Positions 13,502-18,811 of a DNA stretch of 64,000 nucleotides are shown here, one piece after another. The stretch comes from an uncultured Bacillota bacterium (GTDB taxonomy: Bacteria; Bacillota; DTU025; MWDF01): NCBI GenBank assembly GCA_963823655.1, contig CAWGMK010000013.1, positions 466,912 through 530,911 of the forward strand, given 5' to 3'. Under the pieces are notes generated by a model that worked only from the letters and a program-made list of their open reading frames with translations, made no database searches and had not been told where the DNA came from. The position numbers and the translations under genes were made by a program. How positions within the stretch are numbered: position 1 is the stretch's first letter; every line of letters begins with the position of its first letter.

Positions 13502-14038
13502 ATGGCATTAGTCGAGGCGAATTACCGCGATTCGGTGTTGTTCAGGCGCCGCTCGATAAGGAAGTTCAAGGATGAGATGCCGCAGCAATGGCAGCTTAAT
13601 GCCGTTTTAGAGGCTGCGATGTGCACCCAGACCGCCTGTAACCAGATGCCTTTTGAGCTGATGCTGGTAGACGACAGGAAGTTGCTGGACAGGCTTCAGG
13701 CGGCCCTCCCCTTTGCCAGGCTGAATACAGCGCCGGCAGCGATTTTGGTCATGTCGCAGCCGAACTGGAAAGTAAGGATTCACCCGTGCGGCATGTTCAT
13801 TCAGCAGGACCTGGCCGCCGTGAGCCATCAGATCTGCCTTGCGGCCATAGAATTCGGGCTGGGCGCATGCTGGTGCGGCCTGTTCCCTGTGAAGCTCATG
13901 GCATCGGCCGCGGCCAAAGTGCTGGGCATACCGTCCGATGTGATGGTAGTTTCGATAATCCCCATCGGCATTCCGGCCGAGCAGAAGGAGCCCAATTCGA
14001 AGTGGATGCCAGAGAAGCTGCACAGGAACGGTTACTGA
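13502..14038 (+). CDS. Nitroreductase family protein
   Basis: RRSIRKF, NQMP and GLGACWCG; AGGAGG RBS. Confidence 0.85.
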   Translation: MALVEANYRDSVLFRRRSIRKFKDEMPQQWQLNAVLEAAMCTQTACNQMPFELMLVDDRKLLDRLQAALPFARLNTAPAAILVMSQPNWKVRIHPCGMFIQQDLAAVSHQICLAAIEFGLGACWCGLFPVKLMASAAAKVLGIPSDVMVVSIIPIGIPAEQKEPNSKWMPEKLHRNGY

Positions 14039-14178
14039 GAACATTGCTGTTAAAGATATTTATGCTCATATGGCAATATGCGGATATGGGTAAAAATGAT
14101 AAATTTTTGCAGCTTGAAGGATTATCGGTGCCAAATTAGAATATAGTATTTGTTATATGTAGCCATTTGGAGGTACGG

Positions 14179-14877
14179 ATGGTGGAGAGGCTCATGGGCA
14201 ATGGGCTCGATGAAAAGATGGCAGCCAAGCTCGAAGGGCTGATCGGCCGCATGGCAGGCGTTATCGCCGCCAAAGTGATCACCGACAGCTCCAGCAGGCC
14301 TGTCGAAATCCACGTCCTCACGAACCTCCAGAGGACTCCCAAGCAGGTGGCAAGGGATGTGCAGTCCTGCGCGGCGTCTGCTTGCGGCGTACAAGTCGAC
14401 CACAGGATAATCAGCGTTGCGCAAGTAAGCGACGATGCCGTTGGGGCGCCCGGCGTAAGGCTGAAAATCAAGGGTTTGAGCCTCACTCTGGACGAAAATA
14501 CGGTTACGATAAAAGTCGGGCTCACCTACAAGGGTTCCCTCTTCGAGGGCTCATCGTCGGTGATGTCCAAGGCGCAGGGCAAATACGCAGCGGCGTCGCT
14601 TGCCTGCGTAAACTGCCTTCACAAGTTCCTCGGAGTGGATTACGTATTCTCCGTAGTCGATGTGCAGAAAACGAAAATTGCGGGCATGGACGCCTTTAAC
14701 GTAGTGCTCAATCACATTTACGACGGCCGCCAGACGCTTCTGACAGGTGTTGCGCTGGTCCAGGACGATGACTATATGGCGGTGATCAAAGCAACACTGC
14801 ATTCGGTTAACAGGGTTCTCGACAAAGCGTGGCGAAATGGCAGGCAAGTCGATCAGGAAGCGAACGCAGATCTTTGA
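14179..14877 (+). CDS. Hypothetical soluble protein; C-terminus resembles a LeuA-type allosteric domain
   Basis: GGAGGT RBS; EIHVL...PKQVARDVQS...DHRIISVAQ; ends TGVALVQDDDYMAVIKATLHSVNR. Confidence 0.7.
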   Translation: MVERLMGNGLDEKMAAKLEGLIGRMAGVIAAKVITDSSSRPVEIHVLTNLQRTPKQVARDVQSCAASACGVQVDHRIISVAQVSDDAVGAPGVRLKIKGLSLTLDENTVTIKVGLTYKGSLFEGSSSVMSKAQGKYAAASLACVNCLHKFLGVDYVFSVVDVQKTKIAGMDAFNVVLNHIYDGRQTLLTGVALVQDDDYMAVIKATLHSVNRVLDKAWRNGRQVDQEANADL

Positions 14878-14959
14878 TAGCCCAATAAAAGGCCGGACGT
14901 AGCGGAGCGTAACAGCCCATCCACTAGCGAAGATGGAGCAATGGAAAGGGGCTGTTCAA

Positions 14960-15052
14960 ATGCGCAAATTAATGGCAATCATGGGCACCATACTCGCCTT
15001 CGTGCTGGTAGCTGGTGCCAACTGGAAAATATTGCCTCCTCTTACGAAGTAG
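14960..15052 (+). CDS. Unannotated 30-aa small peptide MRKLMAIMGTILAFVLVAGANWKILPPLTK, signal-peptide-like precursor
   Basis: Read directly from the DNA; GGAAAGGGG RBS 8 nt upstream; basic n-region, hydrophobic h-region, VAGA site; too short for the ORF track. Confidence 0.7.
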   Translation: MRKLMAIMGTILAFVLVAGANWKILPPLTK

Positions 15053-15115
15053 ACAGGCAGCCATAATTAGCGGGATCTGTCCGGTCTTGCGGGCTATCAT
15101 CATGTGAGGTCCTAG

Positions 15116-16439
15116 ATGTCCTCTTACAGGTTCAGCGACAAGCACTTCAGGTATCTGGTAATCGCCGCAGGAGCTGCGGCGCTTGTTTATGTTACACTAA
15201 CGCAGCCTATCAAGTTCGACTTTGCGAGCTTCGCATTCCTTGCCCTTATGGCAACGCTTGCGGAATCCCAGCCGGTTGTAACCGACAAGGACAAGACTAT
15301 ATCGGTCGGTTTCGCCTTCGATTTGTGCGCGCTGCTGCTTTACGGGCCTTTGGCGGCGGCATGGGTCGTATTCATATCGAGCATATTCAGCATAACCCAT
15401 GTTAAGAACTGGGGCTACCTGCACATTTTCAATACCCCGCCGGATTATCTGCTTTTCAACGCGATGAATCTGGTCCTGAGCATAATTACCTGCGGATATG
15501 TCTACCAGCGCATGGGCGGCATCTCGCTGGTTTCTCACGGAAATGCCGCAATTCCTAGCATCGGCGCAGTGCTAGGAAGCCTTGGGAACCACGTTTTCAG
15601 CATGGTAGTGGCCATAATGGCCCACATAATGGTCAATACCTCGATAATCTCTGTGCACATCTCGATTGCGACCGACCAGAAGGCGATGATAGCCTGGGCA
15701 TACAGCTTCCTCTGGTCCGTCTTCAACCTTCTTATCGTCGGGATGATGGGCGTGACCATCGCCGCGGTTTATACAAGCTATGGCCCGCTGATGGTCATCT
15801 TGTTCATGATCCCCCTGTTATTGGCCAGAAACTTCTTCGTACAGAATGTGAAGATGCGCGAGATCTACCTGAACACTATCATGGCCCTCACATCCGCAAT
15901 CGAAGCCAAGGATATCTATACGCGGGGCCATTCCGAGAGGGTGCAGAAGATCAGTGCAATGATCGCAAAGGAGATGCGCCTGCCGACAGGGCAGCTCGAA
16001 ATGCTCAGATATGCCGCCATATTGCACGATATCGGCAAAATAGGAATTAGCGAAGCCATTCTGAACAAACCCGCAAGGCTTACCAAGGAAGAGTACGCGA
16101 AGATCATGGAACACCCTGCAATAGGGGCCAAGATAGTCGAGGAAGTGGACTTTCTCAATAGAGCCTCCAAGATAATTAAGAGCCATCATGAGTGTTTCGA
16201 CGGTTCCGGCTACCCTGATGGGATAAAAGGCTCGGACATTCCGCTTGAAATCGCAGATCCTCTCGGTTGCCGACGCATATGATGCAATGACCACCGATAG
16301 GCCCTACAGGGAGGCATTCACTGATAGAAGCGCGTGGGAGGAGCTGGAGCGCAAATCTGGCACCCAGTTCTCACCTGAGGTTGTTCGTGCATTCAGGAAG
16401 GCAGTGGACAAGAAGCAGGAGATCACCAATGCTTTTTGA
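15116..16439 (+). CDS. Multi-TM membrane-sensor HD-GYP c-di-GMP phosphodiesterase (frameshift near 16250)
   Basis: Several hydrophobic segments, then KDIYTRGHSERV, LHDIGKIG, HHECFDGSGYPDG, VADAYDAMTTDRPYR, GTQF. Confidence 0.9.
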
Positions 16440-17010
16440 GTCCGTGTTATTCGGCCTTGCGGCAGGTATACTGCTAGGAGGCAGCATAAAGGAAATCTTC
16501 AGGGCGAGCTTCAGGAGGCTGCCCTTGATTTTCATCGCGGCGGCCATCGATATCATCTTATCCTCTGCTTTTGGCGCGAAGGTTGCGTCACTGGGCGATT
16601 GGGCGCTTATTGCGGCAACCCTTCTTCAGGCGCTGCTGCTAGCCCTGTTCGTAATATCCAATATCGGCATGCCGGCGCTTTGGCTAATAGGCCTTGGTGG
16701 GATCATGAACTCGGCGGCCTCCGCCTTCAACTGGGGCAGGATGCCGATAAGCCCGCAGATCCTCGAAATCGCGCCGGACTCGCCTTACACATTGGCATTG
16801 CTCGCAGGTAAAGTACACAATTACGCCTTAGCGACGGAGCAGACTAGGTTGCTTTTCCTGTCCGATATAATCAACTTCAGAGGATTTACCCTGTATATGA
16901 TAAGCGCCGGCGACATTGTGACGTCTGCCGGGCTTATAGTCCTTATAATTTCGCTTATGCTGCCTCAAAACAGAAGGCCTGCAAGCTTCGATGATGGCCA
17001 TCGTCAATAA
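16429..17010 (+). CDS. DUF5317-like membrane protein
   Basis: Start overlaps the HD-GYP stop; GILLGGS, NWGRMPIS, LLFLSDII and SAGDIV motifs; several TM segments. Confidence 0.75.
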   Translation: MLFESVLFGLAAGILLGGSIKEIFRASFRRLPLIFIAAAIDIILSSAFGAKVASLGDWALIAATLLQALLLALFVISNIGMPALWLIGLGGIMNSAASAFNWGRMPISPQILEIAPDSPYTLALLAGKVHNYALATEQTRLLFLSDIINFRGFTLYMISAGDIVTSAGLIVLIISLMLPQNRRPASFDDGHRQ

Positions 17011-17022
17011 GAAAAGTTCGGA

Positions 17023-18600
17023 CTAGTCTTGCCGCCCGGGCTCACCTTCGGCTAGCTCAATGCCTGATTTCGTAAAGTCTCCATAGAATTCGGCTTCCGC
17101 CTTGAAAGTTATGGTGAGCTCCCTCACCTTCCCGCCTTTGAAACTGTCCTTTGAACCCATCAACACCAATTCACCAATCGGCCTTGCCGCCGCCTTTTCA
17201 AACAACCTTGCTGCGGCCTCGCTGACAGCTTCGCCTGGCTTCGCGTATGTCCACGGCAGCTCGGCCTTCTGGGCAGCGCCCCTTTTTACGACAGCATGCT
17301 TTCCCCCTGCGCTGATTATTACCCTCACCTTTATGCGAACCGGCTCATATCTCGCCTGCTCCGATGGGGTATAGTACACCGAACCTACGAATTCGTCTGG
17401 CAGGTATTGCTGCTCTACCCAGCCCCCCGGGAAATCGTGGGGGTATTTGTACCCTATGCCTTTGCCGATCTTCTCCGCGCCCTTGTATCCTCCGGACTGC
17501 AGGTGTGCGGGCACCTGCCCCAGCGGCTTGTTCTTTAGATCCTCGATGGCGGCATCAATCGCCGACACGACGGCGTTGCTCTTCGGGGCGGTTGCAATGT
17601 GCAATGCGGCCTGAGCCAGCGTAATCCTCGCCTCGGGCAATCCGACATGCTCTACTGCATATGCCGCAGACGCTGCTACCATCAGCGCTGTTGGATCCGC
17701 CATACCGACATCCTCGGAAGCGTGGATCAATATCCTTCTTGCTATGAACCTCGGATCCTCGCCGGACTCGATCATCCTCGCAAGGTAATGGAGCGCTGCG
17801 TCCGGATCCGATCCTCTCATGCTCTTTATGAAGGCCGATATGACATCGTAGTGTATGTCGCCCTGCATGTCATATTTCAAAAGCGTCCTGCCAAGTATCT
17901 CGGCCACCAGCGCCTTCGTCACAAGCGCATCTTCGGCAACGATTGCTGCCATCTCAAGCACATTGAGCGCTATCCTGGCGTCGCCTCCTGCGTGAAGCGC
18001 TATGTAGGCTATTGCCTCCTGCTCGAACCCGATTCCCGAGCCTCCGAGTCCCCTTTCCTCGTCTTTGGCCGCACGCCAAAGCAGAGTCTCAAGTGAATCG
18101 GTGCCTATGGGTTTAAGCATGAAGATCCTCGATCTTGACACCAAGGGAGCTATAATGTCGAAAAATGGGTTCTCGGTGGTAGCGCCGATCAGGCAGATTG
18201 AGCCGTCCTCAACGGCCGGCAACAGCGCGTCCTGCTGTGACTTGTTGAACCTGTGGATCTCGTCTATGAACACCACGGTGCGCGTGCCCTGCATAGCCAG
18301 CTCATCCCTTGCTGCACCCACGACGCGGCGTATGTCGGCAACGCCCGAGTAAACGGCGTTCAGCCTTTCGAATTTCGAGCTTGTGAGGTTGGCGATGACT
18401 TCGGCAATCGTAGTCTTGCCCGAGCCTGGCGGCCCGTAAAGTACCAATGAGCCCAGCTTGTCGGACTCTATCGCCTTTCTGAGCGGTTTGCCTTTACCTA
18501 GAAGGTGGTCCTGGCCTACGACCTCGTCAAGGCCCCTCGGCCTCATCCTTGCGGCCAAAGGCATCGCCTCTGTACCTGCTTCGAAGAGCATGCGGGCCAA
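17023..18600 (-). CDS. rarA: Replication-associated recombination protein A (MgsA/RarA AAA+ ATPase) with ~100-aa C-terminal extension
   Basis: PLAARMRP, GPPGSGKTT, IDEIHRFNKSQQDALLP, SAFIKSMRGSDPDAA, YKYPHDF. Confidence 0.92.
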   Translation of the reverse strand: MARMLFEAGTEAMPLAARMRPRGLDEVVGQDHLLGKGKPLRKAIESDKLGSLVLYGPPGSGKTTIAEVIANLTSSKFERLNAVYSGVADIRRVVGAARDELAMQGTRTVVFIDEIHRFNKSQQDALLPAVEDGSICLIGATTENPFFDIIAPLVSRSRIFMLKPIGTDSLETLLWRAAKDEERGLGGSGIGFEQEAIAYIALHAGGDARIALNVLEMAAIVAEDALVTKALVAEILGRTLLKYDMQGDIHYDVISAFIKSMRGSDPDAALHYLARMIESGEDPRFIARRILIHASEDVGMADPTALMVAASAAYAVEHVGLPEARITLAQAALHIATAPKSNAVVSAIDAAIEDLKNKPLGQVPAHLQSGGYKGAEKIGKGIGYKYPHDFPGGWVEQQYLPDEFVGSVYYTPSEQARYEPVRIKVRVIISAGGKHAVVKRGAAQKAELPWTYAKPGEAVSEAAARLFEKAAARPIGELVLMGSKDSFKGGKVRELTITFKAEAEFYGDFTKSGIELAEGEPGRQD

Positions 18601-18627
18601 ACTGCTAACACTCCCCCCGGTATATAA

Positions 18628-18811
18628 GAAGGCCCCGCGGTGCCGTATTGCGGTGTTTTTCTTCCCTGTCCACGACAGGTGGATGCCCCACTCCCAGCTT
18701 TTTGGGTCCGCCACTTGGCGGCATGCTAGCCACTGTTAGATGAGGGCTTCCTATTCTTTGCTTGTAGGAAGAAAATCCTGTGCAACACGTACACTACAGG
18801 GTCAAAGCTTC
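18628..18811 (-). ncRNA. ssrS: 6S RNA
   Basis: Pairing ends CCCUGUAGUGUACGUGUUGC / GCAAUACGGCACCGCGGGG, internal GGGAG...GGGCAUCCACCUG; usual position upstream of rarA; TATTAT -10 at 18819-18824. Confidence 0.8.

Follow-up and report, generated by a model that had tools for sequence, protein, structure and literature searches.

Small single-pass subunits that are encoded in the operon of their complex are well known in bacteria: KdpF (29 amino acids, aa), CydX (37 aa) and AcrZ are hydrophobic helices in the range of 25–40 aa, widely missed by annotation, which act by packing against a polytopic membrane protein. Other small membrane proteins regulate a sensor via its membrane or periplasmic part, as MgrB and SafA do with PhoQ; the target of MgrB is a histidine kinase, its gene lies away from that of PhoQ, and its periplasmic cysteines are functional. 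In the Agr system, a small open reading frame (ORF) lies together with the genes of a membrane protein and a membrane receptor, and the AgrD precursor has an amphipathic N-terminal helix, a Cys or Ser located five residues ahead of the site of cleavage and a C-terminal tail that is acidic. Here, we compare with these systems a locus at positions 14179–17010 of a 64,000-nt stretch of DNA from an uncultured Bacillota bacterium (hereafter, the window: GenBank assembly GCA_963823655.1, contig CAWGMK010000013.1, positions 466,912 to 530,911 of the forward strand), in which a micro-protein of 30 aa is encoded upstream of a membrane-bound HD-GYP protein, a predicted phosphodiesterase for cyclic dimeric guanosine monophosphate (c-di-GMP).

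The described enzymes closest to the latter are the MASE9-HD-GYP phosphodiesterases TM1467 of Thermotoga maritima and HdgA of Streptomyces venezuelae, which have the same architecture of an integral-membrane N-terminal domain followed by HD-GYP. Membrane-sensor HD-GYP enzymes are common; MASE9 has been described as a domain with a hairpin inside the membrane and eight membrane segments by prediction, and its ligand has so far only been suggested, from sequence, to bind within the membrane (Galperin and Chou, bioRxiv 10.1101/2021.11.05.467447). In its consulted parts, the supplementary figures not among them, this preprint deals with the domain only and mentions no micro-protein, no counterpart of the gene 1 product (hyp232), no link with the DUF5317 family and no leader RNA, all four being features of the present locus; neither “neighborhood” nor “small protein” occurs in its text. 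The small membrane proteins encoded behind c-di-GMP riboswitches in C. difficile are, according to the part of the source consulted, longer four-helix proteins of a different family (PMC13724677). A prediction made earlier from the window's sequence (the original prediction) knew of no characterised system of this composition; we found it described nowhere in the literature searched, supplements and subscription journals lying outside its scope, and the module is uncharacterised. The micro-protein family is new, as are its linkage with gene 1 and with DUF5317 and the leader RNA; the HD-GYP/MASE9 family and DUF5317 were known before.

The small ORF is a true and specific part of a c-di-GMP module, since homologous loci across several phyla have an ORF of 24–30 aa with the same pattern directly upstream of a membrane HD-GYP gene. 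We propose that the locus is one copy of a widespread five-part module, consisting of hyp232, a leader RNA, the micro-protein, a MASE9-HD-GYP protein and DUF5317. On balance, we consider it probable, by a modest degree, that the micro-protein is a single-pass membrane partner of the MASE9 domain, a reading favoured over an Agr-like secreted signal because of its packing pattern, the conservation of its core and a weak co-folding result. The original prediction thus stands as far as it coupled a peptide gene to a c-di-GMP enzyme, while its Agr-like mechanism is unsupported; the frameshift in gene 3, the probable MASE9 identity of its membrane domain, the conserved leader RNA and gene 1 as a conserved partner had been overlooked. 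The features of the locus are the following.

14179–14877, + strand: gene 1, encoding hyp232, a cytoplasmic 232-aa protein of an unnamed family (profile search and AlphaFold2 (AF2) model)
14876–14965, + strand: leader RNA motif (covariance model R1, 37.9 bits)
14960–15052, + strand: gene 2, encoding the 30-aa micro-protein MRKLMAIMGTILAFVLVAGANWKILPPLTK (conservation, codon pattern and profile surveys)
15116–16439, + strand: gene 3, predicted MASE9-type membrane domain and HD-GYP, with a +1 insertion inside (HD_5 match and homologues)
16248–16250, + strand: run of A with one extra base, causing the frameshift (alignment with six intact relatives)
16429–17010, + strand: gene 4, DUF5317 membrane protein (PF17248, E 7.1e-25)
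14114–14142, + strand: promoter-like site (TTGAAG, 17 nt, TAGAAT) in an AT-rich spacer (consensus scan only)

As originally predicted, the four genes are co-oriented on the + strand, between an AT-rich spacer (5′) and a convergent gene (3′), and the stop of the HD-GYP gene (16437–16439) overlaps the start of the DUF5317 gene (ATG at 16429). The product of gene 2 is basic at its N-terminus, followed by a hydrophobic core, a G-A motif and an aromatic/basic tail. A purine-rich Shine-Dalgarno sequence precedes the conserved ATG of the 30-aa form, and the same holds for the start codons of 71 other loci; the frame can also be read from 14933, which gives a 39-aa form. All four genes occur in the same order in six out of six genomes of the same genus, in which the micro-protein is 82–87% identical, gene 1 65–72%, the membrane and catalytic parts of gene 3 75–77% and DUF5317 59–70%. 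Over the 31 codons of the seven same-genus sequences, the 34 variable columns are distributed 7/3/24 by codon position, and residues 12–28 of the micro-protein are invariant in all seven genomes. The 30-aa ORF is a real gene. In favour of a chance open frame in the spacer, the ORF is short, hydrophobic and low in complexity, and nine out of 10 exact micro-protein sequences are absent from a collection of 15 billion proteins (the one present is the window's 39-aa form, annotated as “hypothetical protein”), which indicates that the micro-protein is mostly missed by annotation; the reading as a chance frame is already refuted by the codon-position pattern, the Shine-Dalgarno sequences and the outcome of the two surveys described below.

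The original prediction proposed to scan the DNA upstream of homologous HD-GYP genes for small ORFs, the lack of which would speak against it. Each of eight loci in other families of the phylum where gene 1, HD-GYP and DUF5317 occur together has, in the gap, an ORF of 24–26 aa with the same pattern. In a first survey, we ran a profile of 12 seed micro-proteins against all six-frame ORFs of 15–90 aa (9388 distinct small ORFs) in 80 loci found with gene 1, at a threshold of 10 bits. Among the 73 loci where tblastn detected HD-GYP downstream, 71 have a match of at least 10 bits in the gap, and the single off-site match among the 9388 ORFs (in locus L095) is itself located directly after gene 1. 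Detected with profiles, HD-GYP lies downstream in 75 of the 80 gene-1 loci, and DUF5317 also in 67 of those 75. Three low-scoring loci (L107, L116 and L118) carry divergent small hydrophobic ORFs at the same place. A second survey, seeded with Pfam MASE9 and, therefore, independent of gene 1, yielded 74 places, distributed over 62 of the 201 genomes searched in this phylum. The micro-ORF is present at 47 of the 50 places with gene 1 upstream and at one of the 24 without it, and no off-target match occurred among 5774 small ORFs; both surveys pooled, there is one off-site match among 15,162. The micro-ORF is thus linked to hyp232-associated MASE9-HD-GYP genes, and ORFs of 24–30 aa with the expected pattern occur in several phyla.

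The carriers are mostly Clostridia and their relatives, with, further, Armatimonadota, Chloroflexota, an Atribacteria and a Sumerlaeota metagenome-assembled genome and one actinobacterium; strains of Thermoanaerobacter, Desulfosporosinus and Clostridium subterminale are cultured carriers. In the Frankiaceae locus (L111), hyp232 is divergently oriented and the micro-ORF and the RNA still precede HD-GYP. The micro-ORF occurs without DUF5317 seen in the locus in eight of the 75 and 12 of the 50 loci, some of them at contig ends. Five out of six scanned MASE9 places without gene 1 have GAF and/or GGDEF outputs instead of HD-GYP.

Variant arrangements of the module were also observed. One genome (G023; loci L037/L156) carries two modules on one contig: one with a gene-1-like gene, a weak match of the RNA model (12.7 bits), a divergent 33-aa ORF (1023–1124) and HD-GYP, and another with a micro-ORF (10.2 bits), HD-GYP and DUF5317, without gene 1 and without a match of the RNA model. 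What looked by eye like a micro-protein fused to the second HD-GYP of L037 was rejected, as the gap contains the separate 33-aa ORF and no large ORF exceeds 5.2 bits. In five loci (L097, L104, L109, L085 and L075), two tandem HD-GYP genes lie between the micro-ORF and DUF5317, and in two Chloroflexota loci (L095 and L107) the order is DUF5317, gene 1, RNA motif, micro-ORF, HD-GYP. Among 14 control genomes, only those of Thermotoga maritima and Thermus thermophilus match PF17248 (DUF5317), and the same two match PF20972 (MASE9); as both families match there, the module may exist in these two species.

For the conservation pattern of the micro-protein, we made a logo from 110 unique sequences, with the G-A motif as the anchor and the numbering set to G at −1 and A, S or G at 0. 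Lys or Arg occurs near the N-terminus in 109 sequences, with Lys at −14 in 52; Leu recurs at −12, −9, −6 and −4, and small residues at −10, −7 and −3. Gly at −1 is found in 108 of the 110, followed by an aromatic residue at +2 (75 sequences), Lys or Arg at +3 (55) and Trp or Ile at +4 (85). The tail is 4–6 residues long in 93 sequences; near-identical tails, e.g., NWKII, recur across different lineages, and a few members (in L075 and L085) have Pro at +1. Cys is present in only 10 sequences and Asp or Glu in five. Calculated over 41 loci (820 pairs), the mean pairwise identity of the micro-protein core (0.48) equals that of the HD-GYP domain (0.48) and exceeds those of MASE9 (0.27) and DUF5317 (0.29).

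The product of gene 3 matches HD_5 (PF13487) at residues 260–378 with an E value of 2.2e-25, and its second ORF does so with an E value of 1.1e-6. The HD motif and the HHExxDGxGYP motif are both visible in the translation, and hydrolysis of c-di-GMP is predicted from the HD-GYP family. All 61 aligned homologues match HD_5 and 27 of them match PF20972 (MASE9; best E 4.7e-15), whereas the window's own gene 3 has no MASE9 match at E ≤ 0.1, nor at E ≤ 1e-5 in the genome search; its Atlas features give 0.90 to MASE9 clusters. These comparisons suggest that the membrane domain of gene 3 belongs to MASE9, with a window copy that appears too divergent to match directly.

Gene 3 is not one frame. Two ORFs (15116–16282 and 16245–16439) split the HD_5 match at profile position 126, ahead of the last conserved Asp-containing stretch of HD-GYP. 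The window has three A at 16248–16250 where six out of six same-genus genes, all intact at 1323 nt, have two. The original prediction of a multi-transmembrane HD-GYP protein with intact motifs thus holds for the motifs and the membrane part, but the single open frame that it implied is split by a +1 insertion. Metagenome contigs of approximately 94–96% identity are also without the extra base at 16248 (one of two contigs in run X1; one of one in run X4). No public sequencing run contained half or more of the window's sampled words, and an assembly error and a real inactivating mutation are, for that reason, equally possible; the frame being broken, the enzyme is either mis-assembled or inactive in this genome.

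Gene 4 matches PF17248 over profile positions 3–151 of 151 with 88.2 bits (cut-off 25; E 7.1e-25), which confirms the DUF5317-like protein that had been predicted. A close-relative search returned 17 proteins, and a diverse alignment of 53 sequences was built from the loci instead; seven residues are invariant in it (G18, M105, P106, D146, S159, G161 and D162). The AF2 model (predicted local distance difference test score, pLDDT, 93.3) consists of five helices and a structured conserved loop (100–159), and all the invariant residues other than G18 cluster in this loop and where the last helix starts. The counts of Lys plus Arg place the loops 16–30 and 78–81 and the C-terminal tail inside, so that, by the positive-inside rule, loop 100–159 would be outside the cell.

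The original prediction regarded DUF5317 as a different peptidase in the place of AgrB. We found no peptidase likeness with Pfam, Foldseek or VIA, and the two fold searches yielded no related solved fold, peptidase or other (Foldseek, best E 2.5; VIA, best Z 7.4, to designed helix bundles). Intramembrane aspartyl peptidases of the GxGD type (presenilin, signal peptide peptidase and prepilin peptidase) have a catalytic Asp in each of two membrane helices that face each other, the second Asp being part of GxGD. The two invariant Asp of DUF5317, in an LGD-like and an SIGD-like motif, prompted the idea of such a protease, which we have not adopted: the model places D146 in the loop/strand part and D162 where the last helix begins, and no GxGD-type family is present in the Foldseek or VIA result lists. 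No paper on DUF5317 (PF17248) was found in the literature searched. A single 604-aa frame in another genome (G158; L149:1399–3210) reads MASE9, HD_5 and DUF5317 in that order; this apparent fusion was set aside, as eight A in a row adjoin its junction and the N-terminus of DUF5317 would come to lie inside, contrary to the charge count. It may be an assembly indel.

In the leader RNA upstream of the micro-ORF, AGCGRAGCG is followed by the 5′ half of the outer of two helices (P1), then by the inner one, a hairpin with the loop UAGCGRA, and finally by a spacer and the Shine-Dalgarno sequence, the last Gs of which form, with the following bases, the 3′ strand of P1. In the window, AGCGGAGCG of the leader RNA is located at 14901–14909; P1 pairs 14911–14918 with 14949–14956, overlapping the G-run of the Shine-Dalgarno sequence (14945–14951), and the inner hairpin pairs approximately 14917–14921 with 14932–14936 around the loop UAGCGAA (14925–14931). 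We have drawn these helices by eye from the sequences and then tested them on a plain (unfitted) MAFFT alignment of 56 loci. The proportion of cells that pair is 71.8%, compared with 62.9 ± 1.1% in shuffles (none of 500 reaching it) and 37–50% in slid controls, the latter comparison being flattered because the structure was derived from these same sequences. Changes on both sides of a pair occur in 87 cells, as compared to 44.6 ± 7.5 in controls. In P1, six out of eight pairs show both-side changes (one of them is UA in 18, CG in 16 and UG in six sequences), and its sequence differs between lineages while the complementarity is kept. The inner helix is less well aligned (58.7% of cells paired). 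RNAalifold predicted no pairs on the MAFFT alignment, and the single-sequence fold of the window's leader has a z-score of −1.75 only.

The covariance model R1, built from the alignment of the 56 loci, has a single match in the 2.3-Mb genome, that at 14876–14965 of the window (37.9 bits). In the MASE9 survey, it matches 28 further loci, all 28 with gene 1 upstream, whereas the 23 loci searched that have no gene 1 gave no match; it also matches before the divergent ORF of L116, before the Frankiaceae micro-ORF (L111) and at the contig end of L114. Covariation over 29 matches (the window, which is in the seed, and the 28 survey loci, which possibly share species with seed loci) is 0.316, as compared to 0.135 ± 0.019, in an alignment fitted to the model. 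None of the 4227 covariance models of Rfam 15 matches window positions 13900–17200 at E ≤ 1 or any of eight loci at E ≤ 0.1. The simplest reading of this RNA is that of a translational control element, which may be a riboswitch or a protein-binding site. The product of gene 1 could bind it, as the AGCG units repeat and the RNA was seen only together with gene 1.

Gene 1 has no match in Pfam or NCBIfam; its profile search gave 3882 representative proteins at E ≤ 1e-3, of which 714 at E ≤ 1e-30. In the AF2 model of hyp232 (pLDDT 92.5), the N-terminal domain has a predicted ferredoxin-like fold, with Z of 7–8.3 to C-terminal domains of cation diffusion facilitator (CDF) transporters and to similar common folds. 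The modelled C-terminal domain is similar in fold to the regulatory domain with which LeuA and citramalate synthase bind leucine/isoleucine (Foldseek, 1sr9_B, E 2e-5, and 3f6g_B, E 1.2e-4; VIA, 3f6g_B, Z 9.9, root-mean-square deviation 3.0, 109 of 115 residues aligned, model residues 93–215). The LeuA regulatory fold is made of two beta-beta-beta-alpha units, both found in the hyp232 model; the first of these units also resembles the domain of uS5 that is like a double-stranded RNA-binding domain (Z 6.2–6.8). A search of PDB sequences with the hyp232 profile returned one row at chance level (E 2.1), and since a family match at the sequence level is absent, the modelled relation to LeuA is a likeness of fold, not family membership. 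Three homologues of gene 1 (in L058, L077 and L115) occur without a nearby HD-GYP, micro-ORF or credible RNA match (in L115, 11.7 bits only, E 0.46), and the gene 1 family is, therefore, also found in other contexts.

For the topology of the micro-protein, its binding, its effect on activity and the reader of the RNA, we infer the following, taking the folds of hyp232 and DUF5317 as predicted. The micro-protein would insert into the membrane with its basic N-terminus inside and its G-A/aromatic/basic end at the outer leaflet, and its stripe of small residues would pack against the membrane domain of MASE9. The stripe and the near-invariant Gly are as tight helix–helix packing predicts, and the aromatic/basic end is as a membrane interface predicts. 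It would thereby serve as an encoded intramembrane subunit or “ligand” that sets the activity of the phosphodiesterase, in the manner of KdpF, CydX or MgrB. The partners of KdpF, CydX and AcrZ are transporters and oxidases, whereas here the proposed partner would be a second-messenger enzyme; unlike with MgrB, the output would be c-di-GMP hydrolysis, and Cys is rare in the family. DUF5317 would be a further membrane partner, with its invariant acidic loop on the same outer face. The leader RNA would set the dose of micro-protein and enzyme, and may be read by hyp232 via the AGCG repeats or by a small ligand.

Co-folding of the peptide with the membrane domain had been proposed along with the original prediction. 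Three chains (MASE9 domain, DUF5317 and, as the partner, the micro-protein) were co-folded with custom alignments, a set-up that differs from the one used for calibration. The score was 0.39 (0.37 and 0.47 in other runs), against 0.01 for the best of three controls, in which another chain stood in for MASE9; at least 95% of contacts are shared between the runs, and the pLDDT of the partner is at least 57. The mark of the calibration is reached by 58 of 80 solved complexes and by two of 110 mismatched pairs. At scores of 0.60 or less, the calibration includes only seven of the 80 complexes, together with both passing mismatches, and we consider the support from co-folding to be weak.

Besides this weak support, several observations weigh against an intramembrane partner of MASE9. 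Proteins of the MASE9-GAF-GGDEF and MASE9-GGDEF types occur without a micro-ORF, and the micro-protein is, therefore, no general need of MASE9; nor is there an in-frame fusion of micro-protein and MASE9 among 3332 large ORFs (best ≤ 5.2 bits). The stretch from the conserved Lys (−14) to Lys/Arg (+3) spans only some 16 residues, which is short for a membrane helix and resembles a signal peptide, and the tail is the most variable part of the micro-protein (mean identity 0.19). Signal peptidase I requires small residues at −3 and −1 of its cleavage site, and the residues before the tail (G/A/T/S/C at −3 and A/S/G at −1) fit this rule, as a pattern only. Five out of 68 members match the Phr signal-peptide model (TIGR04429, Phr_nterm; best E 9.5e-5). 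On the side of expression, the evidence consists of metatranscriptome contigs of one run only (X16), which lie on stretches of genes 1 and 3 and possibly derive from DNA.

A good part of this would suit a secreted or processed signal, cut after G-A by signal peptidase I or by DUF5317 at the outer face, of which an aromatic/basic peptide of 4–10 residues or the remaining stub would be sensed by MASE9 and alter c-di-GMP hydrolysis. The logo of the 110 members has the layout of a Sec-type signal peptide, in which a basic n-region precedes a hydrophobic h-region and the residues at −3 and −1 are small; the four invariant loop residues M105, P106, D146 and D162 of DUF5317 would be outside by the charge count, on the side of G-A, and the start of DUF5317 overlaps the HD-GYP stop. 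In size and layout, the micro-ORF recalls the 21–24-aa precursors of SHP, ComS and PrgQ, and more generally those of the SHP/Rgg, ComS/ComR, PrgQ/iCF10 and Phr systems, which have 21–40 aa, are basic at the N-terminus and hydrophobic in the body, and carry their activity at the C-terminal end. The peptides of these systems act on cytoplasmic RRNPP receptors after re-import and need Eep/PptAB or Sec and extracellular proteases; such genes were not noted in the parts of the loci examined, no search having been aimed at them. We hold a secreted signal to be possible, if unlikely. DUF5317 has no likeness to a peptidase, and the micro-ORF also occurs in loci where no DUF5317 was seen (eight and 12 in the two surveys). 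Gly at −1 is more uniform than the −3/−1 rule needs; Pro at +1, found in L075 and L085, blocks signal peptidase I; and the tails are very short, often with Lys or Arg at +3. The core is conserved like a catalytic domain, and NWKII-like tails recur across lineages, both unlike diversifying pheromones. The Agr-like version of such a signal, with three parts as originally predicted, fails at each part. Cys, Asp and Glu are too rare and the tail too short for a thiolactone Cys/Ser and an acidic AgrD tail; gene 4 matches only DUF5317 in Pfam and no other gene of the cluster matches AgrB; the membrane protein has HD-GYP instead of an AgrC-type kinase; and the peptide is highly conserved, not hypervariable as are the fast-diverging pheromone precursors.

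The position of the micro-ORF, always shortly upstream of the HD-GYP start, and the pairing of P1 of the conserved RNA with its Shine-Dalgarno region would also agree with a cis-acting leader ORF, the translation or insertion of which, gated by the leader RNA, controls translation of HD-GYP and DUF5317 in a MifM-like fashion, the peptide having no lasting partner. This appears quite improbable to us, as position-specific residues are conserved across phyla, the last ones included, beyond the needs of a spacer ORF, HD-GYP has a Shine-Dalgarno sequence of its own (63 nt downstream in the window) and no arrest motif is known for the micro-ORF. A small hydrophobic ORF with its ribosome-binding site sequestered in a helix is likewise found in toxins of type I toxin–antitoxin systems, where mRNA structure masks that site; such a toxin is a most improbable explanation for an ORF with a fixed place between two conserved signalling genes in more than 70 loci of several phyla and with one copy in this genome, and an antisense RNA was not seen, though none was sought. 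Elements of these readings can be joined to that of an intramembrane MASE9 partner. The micro-protein would be the MASE9 ligand, and DUF5317, as a new membrane enzyme or chaperone, would cut or withdraw it at G-A at the outer leaflet, switching the phosphodiesterase on or off and possibly releasing a short aromatic signal outside; hyp232 would bind RNA as a sensor, reading the AGCG repeats of what would be a new class of leader RNA, and would set the dose. As a whole, this combined scheme is rather unlikely.

As a binding partner within the membrane for MASE9, a micro-protein fixed upstream of one large branch of MASE9-HD-GYP genes is a concrete and testable candidate. Three more uncharacterised parts are defined beside it: an unnamed family of 3882 representative clusters, DUF5317 and a covarying leader RNA outside Rfam 15. 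Together, they outline a widespread circuit of c-di-GMP control in Clostridia, Thermoanaerobacterales, Desulfosporosinus, Armatimonadota, Chloroflexota and others.

The surroundings of the locus have some minor features. The spacer at 14050–14189 has a GC content of 0.34, as compared to 0.55–0.61 in its flanks. The AT-rich promoter region of the original prediction is thus AT-rich indeed, but the promoter itself comes down to a consensus-level match: four such matches occur in the region, 14114–14142 among them, where 3.2 are expected. Metatranscriptome contigs of run X16 align with 14229–14468 (gene 1; two differing letters) and 15142–15351 (gene 3; three differing letters); as carry-over of DNA is possible, they hint only weakly at transcription in a close relative. 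Downstream, the convergent ORF of 563 aa (17023–18714, − strand) has, by eye, a start like that of AAA+ ATPases with a GPPGSGKTT Walker A motif, and a C-terminal stretch of approximately 120 residues.

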